Source: an uncultured Clostridia bacterium
Lineage (GTDB): Bacteria; Bacillota; Clostridia; TANB77; CAG-508
Assembly: GCA_948777935.1 (NCBI GenBank)
Contig: CAQDYY010000004.1
Location: 21,264 to 85,263, forward strand
Reading direction: 5' to 3'
Length of the DNA stretch: 64,000 nucleotides
Below are positions 9,221 through 62,192 of this stretch, piece after piece (position 1 is the stretch's first letter; every line of letters starts with the position of its first letter). A program made the position numbers and the translations under genes. The notes under the pieces are model-generated. The model did not search any database. It was not told the DNA's origin and saw only the letters and a list, made by a program, of their open reading frames with translations.

Positions 9221-9303
9221 TGGTGTCGATGGTGGGAATCGAACCCACATGGTTTCCCGCAGGTTTTTGAGACCTGTGCGTATACCAATTTCGCCACATC
9301 GAC
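9221..9303 (-). tRNA. tRNA-Leu (anticodon CAA), type-II tRNA with long variable arm
   Basis: reverse complement GTCGATGTGGCGAAATTGGTATACGCACAGGTCTCAAAAACCTGCGGGAAACCATGTGGGTTCGATTCCCACCATCGACACCA; acceptor stem 7/7 complementary; anticodon loop CTCAAAA; T-loop TTCGATT; 3' end ~100 nt from int. Confidence 0.85.
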
Positions 9304-13104: not shown

Positions 13105-13400
13105 ATCACAAAAAAATGATTCATACAATTTCAGAATCATTTTTTTCATTGTATACAACAAAAACCCCGCCTTAGCCGTCATTCTCAAGAGATTTTACGG
13201 ACCTGTACTCACACAGGTGGGTGCTTACCTAAATACTCCTGGGTTTCTTACATTCAGTAAGCATACACGCCATATTTAGAGGTCGGCTCCCAATTCCAAA
13301 ACTTGTAGGTTCTAAAATATCTTGTTTGTCGTACTACGCAGGGATTTTAAGACTGTAAGAATCTTTTTGTGGTTTCCACCACTTACGAATTCTTAAATTC
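13105..13400 (-). other. long 5' leader / candidate structured RNA upstream of the 764-aa gene; begins with R3-family hairpin motif
   Basis: 5' end GAATTTAAGAATTCGTAAGTGGTGGAAACCACAAA (R3 motif, stem GTGGT/ACCAC); several further hairpins (CCTGTGTGAGTACAGG; GCTTAC…GTAAGC). Confidence 0.35.
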
Positions 13401-19189: not shown

Positions 19190-21592
19190 ATGAATAAAAT
19201 AGAATTATTAGCACCTGTTGGTGATTTCGAATGCTTAAAGGCTGCTGTTCAAAATGGTGCAGATGCAGTTTATTTAGGTGCATCAATGTTTAGTGCAAGA
19301 GCTTCAGCTAAAAACTTTGATTTATCTGAACTTGAAGATGCGGTTAATTATGCTCATTTAAGAGATGTTAAGGTACATTTAGCACTAAATACACTAATTA
19401 AAAATAATGAATTAGAAGAAGCTTTGTCTCTTGCAAAAGAAGCATATAAAATGGGAATTGATGCTTTAATAGTACAAGATTATGGCTTATGTTCTATGCT
19501 TTTAAAATATATGCCAGAACTTCCTCTTCATGCAAGCACTCAAATGAGTATTCATAATTTAGAAGGTACAAAAGAATTAGAAAATTTAGGTTTTTCAAGG
19601 GCTGTGCTATCTCGTGAAACTTCTTTAACAGAATTAGAATTTATCAAATCTCATTCTAATATTGAACTTGAAGTATTCATCCATGGTGCTCTTTGTATTT
19701 CGTATTCTGGCCAATGCTTACTTTCTAGTATGATTGGTGGGCGTTCTCGGAAACCGTGGAAAATGTGCTGGAGCATGTAGGCTTCCTTACGAACTTATAG
19801 TAAATTCAAATAAGGAAATCTGTATGGATAAAGGCTATATACTAAGCCCTAAAGATTTATGTGGGCTTAACTTTATTCCAGATTTAATACGTATTGGTGT
19901 TTCTTCTTTAAAAATAGAAGGTCGTATGAAAACTCCTGAATATGTTGCAACTGTTACTAGAGTTTATAGAAAATACATTGATTTAGCATATTCTAATAAC
20001 AAATTTGTAGTAAGCGAGCAAGATAAAAAAGATTTACTACAAGTATTTAACCGTGGAGGCTTTTCTACAGGTCATTTAGATGCAGAACCAAATAGGAATT
20101 TAATTTTTAAAGAAAAACCTAGTAATGTTGGTGTTTATATTGGGAATGTAGCAAATTACAATAAAACTAAAGGACATATTACATTAAATTTAAATGATAA
20201 TTTAACAATTGGTGATACTATTGTTTTTGAAAAGGAAGATACTAAATATAGAATTTCTGAATTAATGATGGGAAAAAATAATATAGAGTATGCAGTAAAT
20301 CGGTCAACTTGTAACTATTGGAAGAATGAAAGGTAATATTAACCCTCGGAGATAAAATTTATAAATTAGAAAGTAAATCCCTTCTTACTAAAGCCAAAAA
20401 TTCTTATCAAGGTGAATTAAAAAAGCACCCTTTATCTTGTTATATTAAAATAGTAAAAAATGCCCCTGTTATGGTTACAGTATTTGCTTATAATATGAAT
20501 TTAGAAGTTAATTCTAATATAATACCCGTAGATGCTACTAATCAACCTATTACTAAAGAACGTGTTATAATGCAATTTTCAAAAACTGGAAATTCTTCTT
20601 TTGTTTTTACTAATTTTGATATTGAATTAGATGATAATTTGTACTTAAATATTGCTGATTTAAATGAATTACGACGTGAGTGTTTAGAAAAAGTATCTCA
20701 TTATATTATAAATAATGCTAAAAGAAAAAATCCAAGAACTTTGCCTACTTCTCTTGATTTTAAAACTGCCAAGAAAAAGATTTCAAAAAAGAAAATATCT
20801 CTTTTATTAAATATTTTAGATGTAAATACAAATTATTCAGAATTGGAAAAAGTAGACCGTATATACATACCATTAAAGTATTTTGCTATGTCAGATTATT
20901 CAAATATTATTAAAAACATAAGTGCTGAATTTGATACATACATTTATATGCCAACTATTATTAAATCAAATTACAGAAATCTATTTACTACTAATATTGA
21001 TAAAGCACTAGAAGAATACAATATAAAAGGGTTTGTTTTATCTAATTTAGGTACATTTAATATGCTTGAAAAGTATAAAGATAACTATGAGTTTATTGGA
21101 AATTATACTTTAAATGTGTTTAATAACTATTCTTTAGAAGCATACCAAAATTTAGGCTTAAATTTAATTACACTATCTCCTGAGTTAAATAAGCAAGATA
21201 TAATAGAAATTTCTAATTTAGCTTGTGTTAGTACAGAACTTATTGTATACGGAAATACTCCTGTTATGACTCTTGGATACTGTGTTTTAGGTAAATCTAA
21301 CAAGTGTTATCCAAATTGTAAATCACTTTGTAAGAGCAAACATAATTATTATTTAAAAGATAGATTAGGACTTTATTTTCCTGTAATCCCAGATTCTATC
21401 CAGACTATTAATACGATTTATAATAGTAAAGTTACATCTCTTGATTTTTCTGAACTACCTATAGATTCTGTTAGAATTGATATTTTAAATGAAAATATTT
21501 TAGAAATTAATAAAATAATTGATACTGTAAGACATGAAAAAAGATTTGAAGGAAAAGATTATACAAATGCTAATTTTATAAGAGAAGTATAG
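19190..21592 (+). pseudogene. U32-family peptidase (collagenase-like), interrupted by two frameshifts (~19755 and ~20330)
   Basis: 'LLAPVGDFECLKAAVQNGADAVYLG' U32 N-terminus; U32 'SGRS-GNRGKCAGACR' motif split across frames by an inserted base (tctCgga); third ORF 20471-21592 is the C-terminal domain. Confidence 0.8.
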
Positions 21593-21603
21593 AATGTAGG
21601 GGC

Positions 21604-21657
21604 ACCGTTTGCCGGGAATACATCGTAGGACCTGACACCACTGTGCCCTTTTTCTAC
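21604..21657. repeat. R1 palindromic repeat unit (orientation B)
   Basis: TGTAGGGGCACCGTTTGCCGGGAATAC…GACACCACTGTGCCC; inverted partner at 22006-22058. Confidence 0.75.
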
Positions 21658-21662
21658 ATTTT

Positions 21663-21974
21663 TTACACTGGATTACTGCTTAGTTTGATTATTAGTTCCA
21701 TATTATCATCTGTTGCCATTTTATTTTTACGTATCTTTCCACATTTTTTGCATTTAAATACTATTACATACCCTTTTTTAGAATTGGTTTCTATACCAAT
21801 TGGCTCTAAATCTCCATGGCACTCTTCTGCCCTGTCTCCTGGATTTATATCTACATGTTTGGAATGTAAACAATATGGGCAATGATTACGGCATGAATAG
21901 CCTAATTTTGGTACTTCTTTGCCACAATTTTCACATATAAATTCTTCATCTATTTCTGTAAATTTGCTTAACAT
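21663..21974 (-). CDS. RNHCP-domain zinc-finger protein
   Basis: 'SCRNHCPYCLHSKH' RNHCP signature with multiple CxxC pairs; likely start is the internal Met (RBS AAAGGA); upstream 33 codons of the listed ORF overlap the R1 repeat. Confidence 0.7.
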   Translation of the reverse strand: MLSKFTEIDEEFICENCGKEVPKLGYSCRNHCPYCLHSKHVDINPGDRAEECHGDLEPIGIETNSKKGYVIVFKCKKCGKIRKNKMATDDNMELIIKLSSNPV

Positions 21975-22005
21975 AGTGTAATCCTTTCTAAATACTAAAT
22001 AATAA

Positions 22006-22058
22006 GGGCACAGTGGTGTCATGTCCATAGATGTATTCCCACAAACGGTGCCCCTACA
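22006..22058. repeat. R1 palindromic repeat unit (orientation A)
   Basis: GGGCACAGTGGTGTCATGTC…GTATTCCCACAAACGGTGCCCCTACA. Confidence 0.75.
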
Positions 22059-22072
22059 TTCTTCTTTTCTCA

Positions 22073-23712
22073 CTAATCTGCAAGTAAACTTCCGCCTATA
22101 AATTCACGTATTAGTGATGTTTTAGGTATTGCTTCTTGTGGAATGGATTCAAAATAACTTAATAAACGAATTAGTCTAGTTGCTTCTGCATATTCTGGTT
22201 GTGTGTTTTTAATTTCTTTTAGTAGTGGCAGTGCATAATCTTTTAATACTCCTAATTCATATATAAGTGATGAATTAAACATACTATTTGCTTCTTCTTG
22301 GAATGGATATATGTATCTTTCTTCTCCACGGTTTACAGAATACCACATTTTTATAGTATGTGTTGCACTATACCCTCTAAATTGATTATCTCTTACAATT
22401 CTTCTAATTAACCTAGTATCTGTTGTTGAGATACGATTGTAGTAATCTATATTTAATACAGTTAATGCACTAATATAGATTTTGTATTTTTGTTCTTTTG
22501 AAATAGAATTTGTTAAACGGTCATTTAAACAGTGGATTCCTTCAATTACTAATATTTCATCATCCGCTAGTTTCATTGTTTCTCCATTATATTTTTTATG
22601 TCCAGTAGTAAAATCAAAAGTTGGAACTTTAATTTCTTCACCATTTAATAATTTTAATAAATGTTCATTAAATAAATTAATATCTAATGCCTCTATACAC
22701 TCAAAATCATAGTTTCCGTTTTCATCTTTGGGGTTATCTTCTCTTTCTACAAAATAATTGTCTACTGATATAGTTACTGGCTTTAACCCATTTAATCTTA
22801 GTTGAATTCCTAATCTTTTCGCAAAAGTAGTTTTTCCAGATGAAGATGGTCCTGCAATTAAAACTACCTTTACTTGCTTATTTTTTGCAATATTATCCGC
22901 AAGTTCGGCAATTTTCTTTTCATGTAAACTTTCAGATAATAAAACTGCATCTTGTGCATTGTCTTTTTTTACTTCACGATTTAGTTTGTAAATAGTATTA
23001 ATTCCAATTAGTTTATATATATCTTCATATTCGTCTAAAGTTGAAACTAATTTTTTATTTTCTACAAATGGGCTAAGTTTTGTTGGTGTTTTCCAATTTG
23101 GATAACGTACAATAAATCCATCTCTATATTTTACAATATCATATACTTTTGTATACCCTGTAGATATTGGCATAACTCCAAAAAAGTAATTGAAATATTC
23201 TTCACAGTAGTATAGTGATGCTCCAAATGTGTTTTCTGTATCTATTTGTATTCTTCCTTTTAATGTTTTTTCTTTTTCGTAAAATTCTTGTGCTTCTTTT
23301 ACGGTCATTTTCACTTTTCTAATTTCTAAGTCTTTATCAATAATTTCTCCCATTTTACTATGAATATTTTGTATCATCTCTTCTGTTACTTTCATATTTT
23401 CTAATTCACAAAACATAGCATTTGAAAGCTGGTAATTTACTGTTAAAAGTGCTTCTGGATATAACTCGTTTAATGCTTTTGCTGCAATATACATTATACC
23501 TCTTATATAAATCATCATTCCATCTTTACTATTTAAATCAATTAGCTCTACATTTGAATTTTCAGTTAATTTTAAGTTTAAACTTCTTACTTCATTATTA
23601 CACATACATGCAATTACTTCTGTTTTTGCATTTTTAATTTCTTCTTTTAATAATTCATATACTGTAACTCCGTGGAGTAGCATCTAATATTCTATTTTCG
23701 TATGTAATTTTC
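22073..23712 (-). CDS. uridine-kinase-family nucleoside kinase with N-terminal TGS-like domain; probable 5' frameshift
   Basis: P-loop 'IAGPSSSGKTTFAKRL'; ATG at 23712 gives MKITYENRILD… in another frame that stops before joining the listed frame at TTG 23683. Confidence 0.75.
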
Positions 23713-33491: not shown

Positions 33492-33741
33492 GTTTTTTCC
33501 TCCTCTTTTTTCAAATCTTGTTTATCATTATATATTATATGGTAATATTTTCCAATAGCAAATTTTAAGAAGTTTTAGCGATTTATGAGAACTTTTCGAC
33601 GGCGTTTTTAGACAAAAAAATATTGGTGAATATTCACCAATATTTTTTTGTCTAATAGAAAATCACTCAGTTTTAAGTTAAAGATGTAGGGGCGAGCATT
33701 GCTCGTCCGTGTGGCAAAACCTCTTTTGTTCAATTTTAATT

Positions 33742-44765: not shown

Positions 44766-44818
44766 AGGGCACAGTGGTGTCATGTCTATTAAGCATTCCC
44801 TTTAAACGGTACCCATAC
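44766..44818. repeat. R1 palindromic repeat unit (orientation A)
   Basis: GGGCACAGTGGTGTCATGTC…CCCATACA; inverted partner at 46164-46215. Confidence 0.7.
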
Positions 44819-44835
44819 ATTTAATATTTTCTATT

Positions 44836-45678
44836 TTACAAATTTTCTTCTACTTTTTTTATTTCTACTAAATCAATTTTTGCAGGATATGTTGTAGTTA
44901 CCACTCCTGTATATATAACAAGAACTTTATCTCCTTTTTTTAGTTGTATTTGTTGCTTCTCGGGAATTATAAAACTATATTTATCACATTCAAATTCCCC
45001 TGATTTATCATCTGTTTTCACAAAAACTGCCTTTCCATTTACTTTTTCAACTGTTCCTATAAAATTTGGTCCTGTTTCATTAATTTTTGCAGTTTTTAAA
45101 TAACTTGCTATTTCATAATTCTTGTATTCACTAGTTTCTTCTCCATATACAGTTAATTCTAATTTTATATAGTCTTCACTTTCTGTCTTTGTGATTCCAT
45201 AAAAGTTGCCTGGAAGATCATTTTTTATTGTTGATTTTTTATTTGACTTTTCTACAAATCTATCTTTAGAATTATCTGTTACAACAACATATTTGTTTTG
45301 ATATCTTTGATAACATATATCAGTTATTAGCATATCTCCCTCTTTAGTATACTCTATAATTCTTAGTATATCAGATGTACGATTTTTATTAGTAATTTTC
45401 GTATTTTCTATAAACTCATCTAGTATTTCAGCATTATATACTTGTTTATCAGTAATAATAAAGCATCCATCATACAATGCCTGTTCAAAACTATATTCTT
45501 CTGGAAGCCCATCTATTGATAAATATTTTCCTAGTTCTCTATAATTTATCCCTTTATTTCTTAGTTTTTCATTATTTAAAGGATTGTATATCATAAAAAT
45601 TATTGTTGCTAATAGTGAAATAGCTATTATCCCAATCATACTCCATAATAATACACTTTTTTTCATATGTTTCACCAT
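44836..45678 (-). CDS. hypothetical membrane-anchored/secreted protein (280 aa)
   Basis: N-terminal signal/TM 'LLWSMIGIIAISLLATIIFMI'; no recognised domain. Confidence 0.55.
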   Translation of the reverse strand: MVKHMKKSVLLWSMIGIIAISLLATIIFMIYNPLNNEKLRNKGINYRELGKYLSIDGLPEEYSFEQALYDGCFIITDKQVYNAEILDEFIENTKITNKNRTSDILRIIEYTKEGDMLITDICYQRYQNKYVVVTDNSKDRFVEKSNKKSTIKNDLPGNFYGITKTESEDYIKLELTVYGEETSEYKNYEIASYLKTAKINETGPNFIGTVEKVNGKAVFVKTDDKSGEFECDKYSFIIPEKQQIQLKKGDKVLVIYTGVVTTTYPAKIDLVEIKKVEENL

Positions 45679-45827: not shown

Positions 45828-46097
45828 ATGATAATAACTGATGCAATTAATTTGAGGATTAGCGAACTTCTTAAGCAACATGGATTAAGTGTATATGCAC
45901 TTTCATATCGTGCAGGAATTTCAAATTCTATTATTAGTGATTGTAAAAGAGGAAAAGTAAAAGAACTCTCTGTTAGTTCTATTATTCATATTTGTGAAGG
46001 ATTAAACATAGAATTAAAAGATTTTTTTGATGCAGAATATTTTAAAGATGTCGAAGCTATTGAACGCTTCGATAAAAATAGTTCAAAAGTTGTCTAG
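45828..46097 (+). CDS. XRE-family helix-turn-helix transcriptional regulator
   Basis: 'LKQHGLSVYALSYRAGISNSIISDCKRGK' HTH_3-type. Confidence 0.75.
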   Translation: MIITDAINLRISELLKQHGLSVYALSYRAGISNSIISDCKRGKVKELSVSSIIHICEGLNIELKDFFDAEYFKDVEAIERFDKNSSKVV

Positions 46098-46163
46098 TAG
46101 AAAAAGAGAACTTTATAGTTCTTTTTTTATATTATATGAATTTACTCTATTTTAAGTTAAAAA

Positions 46164-46215
46164 TGTAGGGGCACCGTTTGTGGGAATACCAGTTAGACAT
46201 GACACCACTGTGCCC
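46164..46215. repeat. R1 palindromic repeat unit (orientation B)
   Basis: TGTAGGGGCACCGTTTGTGGGAATAC…GACACCACTGTGCCC. Confidence 0.7.
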
Positions 46216-46235: not shown

Positions 46236-46769
46236 TTATCTCCAAACATCCCCATTAATATATTGGGTTAATGCCATTATATATGCTGTTTCCGTCAAAT
46301 CAATTCTTGATATTTGATCATGTGTTAAATTTTGAATTGCTCCACCTTTATTATGTCTTTCGTTATCTTCATAAAAAATAGAATTCATTACTTGGCTTAA
46401 ATCTGTATTAATTATATCTTGTACTAACCTCTCTGGCACTGGAAAAGATGCACTTGTACCATAGCTTTCAAAATCATTGTTGTCTTCTATAACAGCAAGA
46501 TTTGTAACCATCCATCTACCTAAAGAATTATATATTCCACTTTCACTAGATAAATATAAATCTGCTTTTATATTATTTTTCATACAATATTCTTTTAAAT
46601 TTCTTACTCTATTTTTAGCTCCTATATATATTTCTTCATTTACTGGTTCTTCACTTACATTAGATTCTACTGGTATACCCTCAATTTCAATATTTTCAAA
46701 ATACCTTGATAATGCCCTTCTTGCACCTTCTATTTTTCCTTGATTTTTTGTTGCAACTAATACTTTCAT
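46236..46769 (-). CDS. inosine/xanthosine triphosphatase-like (YjjX/DUF84, non-canonical NTP phosphatase)
   Basis: 'MKVLVATKNQGKIEGA' start and ITPase-fold residues; start likely at the second Met. Confidence 0.65.
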   Translation of the reverse strand: MKVLVATKNQGKIEGARRALSRYFENIEIEGIPVESNVSEEPVNEEIYIGAKNRVRNLKEYCMKNNIKADLYLSSESGIYNSLGRWMVTNLAVIEDNNDFESYGTSASFPVPERLVQDIINTDLSQVMNSIFYEDNERHNKGGAIQNLTHDQISRIDLTETAYIMALTQYINGDVWR

Positions 46770-46913
46770 TTTATACACCTTCCTTATTTTTAACACACAT
46801 AAAAGCTATGCAATCGTCACATAGCTTTTATTGTTTATATATTTTCCTATTTCATAGCTAGCTAACGCAGACTAGATCTGTAATATTCTACTTCATACTT
46901 CGTATTCATAGAA

Positions 46914-51231: not shown

Positions 51232-51978
51232 TTAATAGTTTACAATTCCTGCAAAGTCTTCTGGTTTTAAACTTGCTCCTCCAACAAGTGCTCCATCTAT
51301 ATCTGATGTGTTAAATAGTTCTTTTGCATTTGTTGGTTTTACACTTCCACCATATTGGATTATAACTCTTTCGGAAGTCATTTGTCCATATATTTTACAA
51401 ATTTCGTCACGTATTTCTTTTATACTATTATTTGCATCTTCACTTGTTGCTGTTTTTCCTGTTCCAATTGCCCAAATTGGTTCATATGCAATAATTGTAT
51501 TTTCTACTTGTTCATTTGTTAGACCTTCTAATGCAAGGCGTGTTTGTGCGGTGATTACTTCTTTTGTTTTTCCTTGTTCACGTTCTTCTAAAGTTTCTCC
51601 AACACATACTATTGGTTTTAGTTCATTTGCAAAAGCTGCTTTTATTTTTTTGTTAACTGTTTCATCTGTTTCTGCAAAATACCCCCTTCTTTCTGAATGT
51701 CCTATAATAACATATTCTACGCCAATTGATTTTAGCATAGAACCAGATATTTCTCCTGTATATGCTCCTGTTTCTTCCCAATGCATATTTTGTGCTCCAA
51801 TTTTTACATTACTTCCATTTGTATGTTTTACCATACATTTTAAGTCTAAATATGGTGCACAAAGTATTACTTCTGCACTTGTATCTTTAACAAGAGGAAT
51901 AAATTCTTCTAAATATTTTTTTGCCTCTTCTGGATTTTTGTTCATTTTCCAATTTCCTGCAATTACTTTTTTTCTCAT
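51232..51978 (-). CDS. tpiA: triose-phosphate isomerase
   Basis: 'IAGNWKMN', '[11 protein letters not shown]', 'GGASLK' TIM signatures. Confidence 0.96.
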
Positions 51979-52180
51979 AAAATCTCTCCTTTTAATTTTA
52001 GTTATACTAAATTCTTCTGTAATAGTATTAAATCCCTACGAAGAATCTCGGAGCCATAAGTGGGGACCAATAGAAACCGTCAAAATGCGCAAGCATTTTG
52101 TACAGTTCCACCCAGGAATGGCGACGGTTCGTAGGTATTTAATACTATTACCTAGAACTTATTTATACCTTATCGAAACA

Positions 52181-52232
52181 GGGCACAGTGGTGTCATGTC
52201 TTTTGGGTATTCCCACAAACGATGCCCCTACA
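52181..52232. repeat. R1 palindromic repeat unit in the pgk-tpiA spacer
   Basis: GGGCACAGTGGTGTCATGTCTTTTGGGTATTCCCACAAACGATGCCCCTACA. Confidence 0.7.
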
Positions 52233-52238
52233 CACATA

Positions 52239-53423
52239 TTATTTATTTTGTAGACATTCAATTCCTGGTAATTTTTTACCTTCCAAGAATTCTAGGCTTG
52301 CTCCTCCACCAGTAGAAATATGTGTCATTTTATCTGCTAATCCTGCTTTTTCAATAGCTGCTGCTGAATCTCCTCCTCCTATAATAGTTACTGCATCAAC
52401 TTCAGCTAGTGTTTTTGCTATTTCATTTGTACCAATTGCAAATTGATCAAATTCAAATAATCCTAGTGGTCCATTCCATACTATTGTTTTTGCATTTTTT
52501 AATTCTTCTTTATATAGTTTTATTGTTTCTTCTCCTATATCAAAGCCTTCCCATCCATCTGGAATTTCACTCGCTTTTACTGTTTTACTTTCAGTGTCTT
52601 TGTCAAATTCTTTTCCTAGTTTTGTATCTACTGGTAACATCATTTTTACACCTTTTTGTTTTGCTTTTTCCATTAACTCTAATGCTAAATCTAATTTATC
52701 TAATTCACATATAGAATTTCCTACTCCATAACCTTGTGCTTTAAAGAAAGTATATGCCATAGCTCCACCAATCATTAATGTATCTACTTTTTCAAGTAGT
52801 GCATTTATTACACCTATTTTATCTGAAACTTTCTTTCCTCCTAAGATTGCAACAAATGGTCTTGTTGGATTATCTAATGCATCTCCCATAAAATCAAGTT
52901 CCTTTTCAATTAAGAAACCAGAAACAGCTGGTAAGTAATCTGCTACTCCTGCTGTTGATGCATGTGCTCTATGTGATGTTCCAAATGCATCATTTACATA
53001 GATTTCTGCAAGTGAAGCAAGTTCACGAGCCATTTCAGGATCATTTTTTTCTTCTCTTGAATCAAAACGTACATTTTCAAGAAGCATTACTTCTCCTTCT
53101 TGTAATGAATTTGCTATAGATTTTGCACTTTCTCCTATTACATCATCTGCTAATTTAACCTCTATTCCTAATTCTTTTGATAATTCTTTTGCTACGGGTG
53201 CTAATGAAAACTCTTTTTTTACTTCTCCTTTTGGTCTACCTAAATGAGAGCAAAGAATTACTTTTGCACCATTTTCTATTAAGTATTTTATAGTTGGTAA
53301 TGATGATACAATTCTTCTTGTATCTGTAATATTTCCGTTTTCATCTTGTGGTACGTTAAAATCGCAACGAACCAATACTTTTTTTCCTTTTACATCAATG
53401 TCTTTTACTGTTTTTTTATTCAT
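52239..53423 (-). CDS. pgk: phosphoglycerate kinase
   Basis: '[12 protein letters not shown]' N-terminus; start at MNKK with GGAGG RBS. Confidence 0.96.
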
Positions 53424-53563
53424 GTTACAAACCTCCATCTAGAGTAATTTCTTACTCTAATAATATTTTTATCCATAATGCATTATATCCTATTTTGTTT
53501 TGTGCGATACCATTGTATACTAAAAAAGAATACTTTTCAAGTATTCTTTTCTAGTTTATTAAA

Positions 53564-61650: not shown

Positions 61651-61701
61651 GGGCACAGTGGTGATAATCTCACGGGTATTCCCACAAACGGTGCCCCTAC
61701 A
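61651..61701. repeat. R1 palindromic repeat unit in grpE-dnaK spacer
   Basis: GGGCACAGTGGTGATAATCTCACGGGTATTCCCACAAACGGTGCCCCTACA. Confidence 0.7.
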
Positions 61702-61709
61702 TCATTTGT

Positions 61710-62192
61710 TTAATTTGCTACTACTACCATAGAATGACGTATTACCTTGTTTCCTATTTTGTAGCCCTTTCTAAATTCTTCTTTTATTTCTTTTTCACCT
61801 AGTGTGTCATCTTCTACACTGCTTACTGCTTCATGGTATTCTGGGTTAAATGTTTCTCCTACTGTTGGTATTTGTTCTACTCCTAAGTTCGATAATGTAT
61901 CTATAAGTTGTTTGTATACCATTTCTACACCTTGTTTATAGCTTTCATCCTCTGTTTTTGTAGATACTGCTTTTTCTAAGTTATCTACTACTGGCAATAT
62001 AGATGTAATTATATCTGATATTAACGAATTATATAGTGTTTCTCTTTCTTTTGAACTCCTTTTTTTGAAGTTATCAAATTCTGCCATAAGACGTTTATAT
62101 CTATCTGTCATTTCTTCTAATTCTTGTTTTGTAGAATCTTGCTCAGTCTCAATGTTTTCTTTTTTTTCTACTACTTCTTCATTTTCTTCCAT
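61710..62192 (-). CDS. grpE: nucleotide exchange factor GrpE
   Basis: acidic N-terminus, 'RYKRLMAEFDNFKKR' coiled coil, C-terminal beta domain. Confidence 0.9.
   Translation of the reverse strand: MEENEEVVEKKENIETEQDSTKQELEEMTDRYKRLMAEFDNFKKRSSKERETLYNSLISDIITSILPVVDNLEKAVSTKTEDESYKQGVEMVYKQLIDTLSNLGVEQIPTVGETFNPEYHEAVSSVEDDTLGEKEIKEEFRKGYKIGNKVIRHSMVVVAN

Follow-up and report, generated by a model that had tools for sequence, protein, structure and literature searches.

Repeats on either side of an RNHCP-domain gene in uncultured gut Clostridia are probable GTAG-headed REPs of a REP/RAYT system

The 53-nt repeat R1, two copies of which lie on either side of a small RNHCP-domain gene in a 64,000-nt stretch of DNA from an uncultured Clostridia bacterium (hereafter the window), is very probably a long-hairpin member of the GTAG-tagged REP superfamily and part of a REP/RAYT system of low-GC uncultured gut Clostridia. 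At the level of sequence, R1 passes every test for the REP of such a system, an assignment that follows from its GTAG head, its imperfect palindrome, its high copy number and the presence in related species of a RAYT gene that is itself flanked by R1. On comparative sequence grounds, the RNHCP gene is an old, vertically inherited resident of its locus and not a mobile cassette. The repeat itself is far beyond chance; the bracketing of the RNHCP gene by two copies of it is not.

The locus consists of two convergent genes with the small minus-strand RNHCP gene in between. On the plus strand, an ORF of 373 aa (20471..21592) encodes the C-terminal part of a U32 peptidase, with DUF3656 and Peptidase_U32 domains, and carries the left-hand R1 at its 3' end. 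On the minus strand, a udk-like nucleoside kinase of the PRK family (22073..23683, 536 aa) carries the right-hand R1 at its 3' end, and the RNHCP gene (21663..21974, minus strand; Pfam PF12647, E = 3.5e-32) is co-directional with udk and lies downstream of it. The RNHCP protein had been counted as 104 aa and actually comprises 103 aa followed by a stop codon. A longer ORF of 136 aa uses a GTG start, and its 33 extra N-terminal codons are translated repeat, as had been proposed from the sequence alone: the Pfam domain covers residues 10-95 of the 103-aa form, and AAAGGA precedes the ATG by 8 nt. On related contigs, the gene has been called as 103 aa in some cases and as the 136-aa form in others. 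The left-hand R1 (21595..21648, GTAG-head strand plus; nhmmer score 57.2 bits) reads TGTAGGGGCACCGTTTGCCGGGAATACATCGTAGGACCTGACACCACTGTGCCC, then TTTTT; it starts 2 nt past the U32 stop codon (21592) and ends 14 nt short of the RNHCP stop. The right-hand R1 (22006..22058, GTAG-head strand minus; 61.8 bits) is found 14 nt past the udk stop (22073) and 31 nt upstream of the RNHCP ATG. The two copies have opposite orientations, and their alignment shows ~85% identity and two 1-nt indels. The sequence-only reading had reported two R1 units in opposite orientations around the gene, and both are real; it placed the right one exactly and quoted the sequence of that copy, and it put the left one at 21604-21657, 9 nt too high.

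No space is left for a separate promoter between the hairpin and the RNHCP ribosome-binding site (RBS) in any lineage, so that RNHCP is probably read through from udk; co-transcription of the two genes is the most likely arrangement. The one promoter-like sequence detected in 21300-22400, TGGACA-17-TATTAT, lies partly within the right-hand R1 and was set aside, as such sites are no commoner than in shuffled sequence and the RBS spacing that results in L003, a related contig, is implausible. A 7-nt tandem duplication, TATTTAG TATTTAG, is present at 21983-21996 between the right-hand R1 and the RNHCP RBS and is absent in L003. The U32 peptidase occupies 19190-21592 (plus strand) as three ORFs of 196, 200 and 373 aa. 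The same three parts are called on related contigs from every lineage, except that L007 has a fused 424-aa middle and C-terminal part; the gene is either an old pseudogene or truly split. Elsewhere in the window, 13160-13347 (minus strand) is a 6S RNA (85 bits) and 9221-9303 (minus strand) a tRNA-Leu(CAA).

R1 is a repeat with many copies. Its two half-patterns match five times each in the window, against 0.00-0.01 expected, and together define six copies, all of which are confirmed by nhmmer with an HMM built from those six. The four copies away from the RNHCP gene are located at 44767..44819 (minus strand; 16 nt past the stop of gene 44836-45678, minus), 46164..46215 (plus; 66 nt past the stop of 45828-46097, plus, with the stop of convergent 46236-46796, minus, 20 nt away), 52181..52232 (minus; 6 nt past the stop of 52239-53438, minus) and 61651..61701 (minus; 8 nt past the stop of 61710-62192, minus). 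Read as TGTAGGGGCAC...GTGCCC, all window copies begin 2-66 nt past the stop codon of a gene transcribed into them. Directly downstream of the copy at 52181 and upstream of gene 51232-51978, a GC-rich and seemingly structured leader of ~120 nt (52060-52180, minus strand) gave no credible Rfam match, the sole match being a miRNA family at E = 0.47. Outside the window, an exact-pattern scan using one genome per species found more than 93 stretches in ~18 MAG species among the matches listed, and the R1-bearing MAGs among these matches are all described as uncultured Clostridia, Clostridiaceae, Clostridium or Eubacteriales, many of them from mouse gut. With the HMM, 132 distinct R1 copies were detected in sampled DNA totalling 830 kb, which came from ~18 MAG species of uncultured gut Clostridia. 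The copies sit in spacers, ~10% of which contain one, and apparent cases inside ORFs are accounted for by spurious short ORFs. The consensus, TGTAGGGGCACCGTTTGTGGGAATACC-[~9 variable nt]-GACATGACACCACTGTGCCC(TTTT), is more than 90% conserved outside its centre (124 copies), in species whose overlapping genes are just 65-84% identical to those of the window; the sites that R1 occupies are not conserved between species.

The fold of R1 is that of an imperfect hairpin. TGTAG directly abuts GGGCAC in five of the six window copies, the sixth having GTAT, and the head is more than 90% conserved in the 124 copies. The 6-bp foot GGGCAC/GTGCCC pairs in 120-123 of 123 aligned rows and a tiny inner GG/CC pair is also consistent, the rest being mostly unpaired. 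The fold z-scores of the six window copies range from -0.3 to -3.1 and hence mark them as imperfect hairpins: the claim that each unit is itself a hairpin holds for the GC-rich foot, and has to be qualified for the only partly paired interior. No covariation is present in the stem in the alignment of copies, because the sequence is nearly invariant and offers almost no variation; the stem therefore draws its support from folding energy only, weakly for some copies. No target-site duplications, a feature that the sequence-only reading had proposed to look for, are detectable around 124 R1 copies, and flank k-mer matches (k = 2-6) are barely above the shuffled expectation.

A candidate enzyme for R1 is encoded in related species. 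With E. coli RayT (from NC_000913) as a phmmer query against all six-frame ORFs of the sampled loci, three homologues were detected at ~1e-8, in L025, L057 and L084. In L025 and L057, as well as in L113-L125, the RAYT gene has R1 on both sides, inverted and with the heads outward, at a distance of 9-35 nt (17-35 nt on the start-codon side, 9-12 nt on the stop side). In L025, the inverted flanks remain symmetrical for another 13 nt, up to a second GTAG. L113-L125 are thirteen further contigs from independent samples that share the RAYT gene, the inverted R1 flanks and the neighbouring genes, which argues that the RAYT gene is single-copy at a fixed locus. The proteins are ~150 aa in length, possess an HIH motif and a tyrosine within Y-I-I-N-N-P, and score above the Pfam Y1_Tnp cut-off. 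Their best NCBIfam match is REP_Tyr_transpos (NF047646; 1e-18, 63-68 bits, below the curated cut-off of 80), with transpos_IS200 at 21-28 bits. The sole PDB match is 4ER8, the E. coli TnpA-REP, with the HUH motif aligned and the tyrosine at the Y(I/x)xNP position. Relatives in the databases are unnamed, called 'transposase' or, by JGI, 'REP element-mobilizing transposase RayT', and the nearest named ones are from Bacteroidota. No RAYT gene is present in the 64-kb window, and look-ups of three RAYT variants did not return the assembly taken as the window's genome (GCA_948687905.1, contig CAPQQM010000002.1) among the matches listed; by analogy with its relatives, this genome presumably carries a RAYT gene as well.

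Two further observations concern the RAYT locus. In L113, L114 and L116-L125, the left R1 beside the RAYT gene has an insertion of ~40 nt exactly in the hypervariable centre; both arms are left intact, indicating that the centre tolerates insertions. In L084 (6173-6688) and L126-L135 (for instance, L127 1501-2800), the R1-associated RAYT gene is decayed, with HIH changed to HIY, and its 3' end and the right-hand R1 are replaced by a second Y1_Tnp gene of 246 aa on the opposite strand. Inverted GTTTTTGGGGACGGAGAAGAA repeats enclose this second gene, and the junction shows a tandem duplication.

R1 is one of several GTAG-headed hairpins in these genomes. In the sampled DNA, 293 distinct sites carry the heptamer GTAGGGG where 13 would be expected. 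R1 accounts for 113 of them, and ~170 head other GC-rich palindromes that fall into several recurrent classes (examples are TGTAGGGGCGACCATTGGTCGTCCG, TGTAGGGGTCGGCGTCCTCGACGACCCG, TGTAGGGGCGATTATTAATCGCCCG and TGTAGGGGCACGGCGCACCGTGCCC). A member of a different, short class is located in the window at 33685..33709 (plus strand; TGTAGGGGCGAGCATTGCTCGTCCG), and this class recurs in L022, L061, L081, L088 and L102. Taken together, the sampled loci contain roughly one GTAG-headed hairpin per 3 kb. Right behind REPs of various classes (L038, L059, L065, L072 and L103), a small motif recurs that consists of GTGGCGAAGCCAC and then TTTT; it is also part of the hairpin on the U32 side, downstream of RNHCP, in the R1-free contigs L001 and L002.

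In the literature, REPs are defined by a conserved GT(A/G)G head and, after it, an imperfect palindrome whose middle is non-complementary; the closest named systems are the E. coli REP/BIME elements with RayT (YafM) and the REPs and REPINs of Stenotrophomonas and Pseudomonas (PMC2817692, PMC3733652, PMC3479197). Like these gammaproteobacterial REPs, R1 has a 5' GTAG head that abuts a GC-rich imperfect palindrome with a non-complementary middle (PMC2817692, PMC3733652, PMC3479197), its copies are numerous, dispersed, extragenic and mainly downstream of genes, several REP classes are found in one genome, and target-site duplications are absent; a Y1/HUH gene between two inverted copies of one REP, at one conserved chromosomal site, is likewise shared with the gammaproteobacterial RAYTs. 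In contrast to them, R1 resides in a gut Clostridia lineage with 28% GC. It is also longer (53 nt) and less palindromic than the classical REPs of 20-40 nt, and has a long interior that is conserved in sequence although mostly unpaired, around a hypervariable centre; its 6-bp foot is shorter than the 7-20 bp of one published search rule (PMC6006769), its copies are mostly singletons as opposed to REPIN doublets or BIMEs, a T-run is frequent after the foot, and the associated RAYT falls below the NCBIfam equivalog cut-off, with its nearest named relatives in Bacteroidota.

Two other kinds of mobile element share part of these features. As in IS200/IS605 elements, the R1-associated RAYT belongs to the same catalytic family (Pfam Y1_Tnp), hairpins flank the gene, target-site duplications are lacking, and the strand and orientation bias of R1 is compatible with action on the lagging-strand template. 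Unlike in IS200/IS605 elements, the RAYT gene is single-copy at its fixed locus and only the hairpins are amplified, its two ends are the same sequence inverted and not distinct left and right ends, and its score is far higher with REP_Tyr_transpos than with transpos_IS200. With the MITEs of DDE transposons (Correia, RUP and ERIC-like elements), R1 shares the form of a short, non-coding, dispersed intergenic repeat with inverted symmetry, but it has neither target-site duplications nor DDE-type terminal inverted repeats, and combines a GTAG-headed hairpin with a Y1 enzyme. The description of R1 as MITE-like thus fits loosely, in that R1 is a dispersed miniature repeat of a kind thought to be mobilised in trans, but not with regard to target-site duplications.

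The position and orientation of R1 follow the genes around it. In co-directional spacers, the order stop, TGTAG...GTGCCC, start is observed 63 times against 12 times reversed (p = 2e-9), and in 110 of 132 copies (83%) the head lies on the strand that carries most of the local genes. The spacers that hold R1 (75 co-directional, 13 convergent and 11 divergent) are distributed roughly like the background (431, 101 and 94, respectively). Y1 transposases of the IS200/IS605 family act on the lagging-strand template. By analogy, the sense strand of most genes in these genomes would have the sequence of the lagging-strand template, the strand on which RAYT would act. Since the genes are strongly co-oriented and their sense strand would thus coincide with the lagging-strand template, the orientation bias fits RAYT mechanics and selection at the level of the transcript alike. 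Cases that discriminate between replication and transcription are few and do not agree: replication is favoured in 4/4 for R1 and in 3/6 for all GTAG hairpins.

The same bias is what would be seen if R1 copies were primarily terminators or stabilisers of RNA 3' ends that are kept by selection after genes, the association with RAYT being incidental. We consider this reading improbable as a full account of R1. It is favoured by the position of the head, a few to tens of nucleotides past a stop codon in all six window copies and in most elsewhere, and by the sister lineages, which carry other hairpins at both sites flanking RNHCP. The sequence that follows the foot is also T-rich. Behind GTGCCC, the frequency of T at positions one to four is 66%, 70%, 53% and 50%; among 124 copies, 62 contain three or more T within the 4 nt behind the foot and 52 contain five or more within the next 8 nt, the stem-loop being long and interrupted. 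About half of the copies, the U32-side one (GTGCCCTTTTT) among them, have TTTT immediately behind the foot; the udk-side copy has TTATTATTT. However, a T-run is missing in half of the copies, a scan of 21300-22400 for canonical terminators found none, 11 copies lie in divergent (start/start) spacers and 12 are reversed, and one R1 copy is located directly upstream of the RAYT start codon. Gene 45828-46097 already has an AT-rich hairpin and T-run of its own behind it, at 46098-46135 (AGAAAAAGAGAACTTTATAGTTCTTTTTTTAT), ~30 nt ahead of the R1 copy at 46164; R1 is therefore not needed as a terminator there. Moreover, terminator function alone leaves the near-identity across species of ~44 nt of mostly unpaired sequence unexplained, and the conserved GTAG head is among the features by which RAYTs recognise DNA (PMC3479197). 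For the copies themselves, a terminator role could nonetheless be the main selective reason for their position, about half of them having a T-run.

The sequence-only reading had interpreted the locus differently, namely as a cassette or composite transposon, with RNHCP and its inverted R1 pair inserted as a single mobile unit between the convergent U32 and udk genes. In its favour, the gene is small, the repeats are only 14-31 nt from its ends, and the heads-outward inverted geometry is the same as around the RAYT gene. Comparison with relatives makes this reading very unlikely. The 103-aa RNHCP protein was found by exact look-up on 16 contigs, all of which keep the order udk, RNHCP, U32. Both R1 units are present in L003, which is 95.7% identical to the window, but neither is present in two lineages that are ~90-92% identical (L001, L004, L008 and L010 on the one hand, and L002, L005-L007 and L009 on the other) and whose RNHCP protein is 100% identical. 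In the distant MAG L079 (~70% identical in udk), the order udk, RNHCP, U32 is likewise kept, with no R1 in the spacer. The proposed comparison with genomes lacking the insert therefore yielded RNHCP genes without R1, and no udk/U32 junction without RNHCP was found. Against L001-L003, the RNHCP coding sequence has 5-12 nucleotide differences, all of them synonymous, and udk has 51-90 differences; RNHCP has therefore diverged along with its neighbours, at this locus and under purifying selection. Target-site duplications, as stated above, are absent.

The geometry of the pair likewise needs no cassette. When six R1 copies are placed at random in 47 spacers of at least 20 nt, ~51% of placements leave one gene or more with R1 on both sides. 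The inverted, heads-outward arrangement is automatic, because each GTAG head faces its upstream gene and the flanking genes converge, so that the orientation of each copy is accounted for by the gene upstream of it. R1 shows no enrichment around RNHCP, a point that the sequence-only reading had proposed to examine. What had been named as the picture that would speak against a cassette, an abundant REP present after most genes and not enriched around cassettes, is essentially the one obtained, as R1 is abundant and mostly just downstream of genes, except that it occupies about a tenth of the spacers and not most of them. Hence, the two R1 copies are best regarded as independent occupants of the spacers on either side of RNHCP, which came or went independently of the gene.

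In the sister lineages, other hairpins occupy these positions. On the udk side, L002 has GGGTAGGGGCAGAATCTATTTCTGCCCTTA, in which the head (GTAGGGGCA) and the foot (TGCCCTTA) are as in R1 and the interior differs, and L001 has a decayed GCAG-headed hairpin of another class. On the U32 side, both R1-free lineages have an AT-rich hairpin, TAGGAAAAGT(G/A)GCGAAGCTACTTTTCCTA, that overlaps the U32 stop codon. Because R1 replaces other hairpins at both sites, no clean insertion boundary or target motif can be fixed there. The udk-RNHCP spacer is a REP hot spot across species. In L079, three GTAG-headed hairpins, each from a different class and none of them R1, are clustered in this spacer (658-898) in a BIME-like manner; two of them are forward and one is reversed. 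A variant of the cassette reading, in which RAYT could excise or transfer R1-RNHCP-R1 as a REPIN-like unit with cargo, would, if true, provide a route for REP systems to capture and move host genes; with the locus syntenic in every relative examined, we regard it as hardly probable. That R1 encodes a structured small RNA or a cis-acting regulator (a riboswitch or sRNA, for instance) might be suggested by the high sequence conservation of its apparently unpaired segments but is extremely unlikely, given copies (more than 100) in both orientations at sites that are not homologous, weak folds, a hypervariable central loop that tolerates an insertion of ~40 nt, and no match of R1 to Rfam, either across the whole window at gathering thresholds or in 21500-22150 at E <= 1.

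For R1 as the REP of a REP/RAYT system, the following mechanism can be envisaged. The active strand would consist of 5'-TGTAG, the GGGCAC foot, a largely unpaired interior with a hypervariable centre, GTGCCC and often TTTT. We hypothesize that the Y1/HUH protein RAYT recognises GTAG and the hairpin as single-stranded DNA and copies or maintains R1, in which case the mobility of R1 would be driven by RAYT. Indirect evidence for such mobility comes from lineages that differ in whether R1 is present and from the differing sites it occupies in different species. Such an action would explain the conservation of more than 90% across species, the absence of target-site duplications and the one dominant orientation. 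E. coli REPs have classically been described as intercistronic attenuators or stabilisers. By analogy, R1 may form a 3' stem-loop when transcribed and could have a terminator or stabiliser effect on RNA, attenuating read-through from udk into RNHCP or protecting the upstream mRNA.

REP/RAYT systems are a known kind of system, encountered here in a lineage for which we found no published description of R1 repeats in a literature of which we covered a part. A survey of GTAG REPs names hosts only in Proteobacteria, Cyanobacteria, Chloroflexi and PVC, and a phylogenomic study of TnpA-Y1 proteins names Clostridia for the IS200 subclass only. Segmented filamentous bacteria (SFB) had been considered as host in view of the 28% GC, the mouse-gut origin and the sporulation genes, and were set aside as unproven: rRNA and SFB primer sites are absent, and papers on SFB genomes do not mention repeats of this type. 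The present data indicate a full REP/RAYT system in a group of uncultured gut Clostridia of low GC content, with several GTAG-headed classes and at least one RAYT gene flanked by its own REP. Firmicutes hosts are absent from the REP surveys consulted, and the system is of modest interest as a Firmicutes REP system. The RNHCP gene gains no new context from its R1 flanks. For annotation, R1 accounts for spurious N-terminal extensions of ORFs in these MAGs, such as the 136-aa RNHCP call, and flags probable assembly breakpoints. Finally, an AT-rich and strongly strand-biased genome offers a setting in which replication, through transposition of single-stranded DNA, may be separated from transcription, through a function at RNA 3' ends, as the cause of REP orientation.
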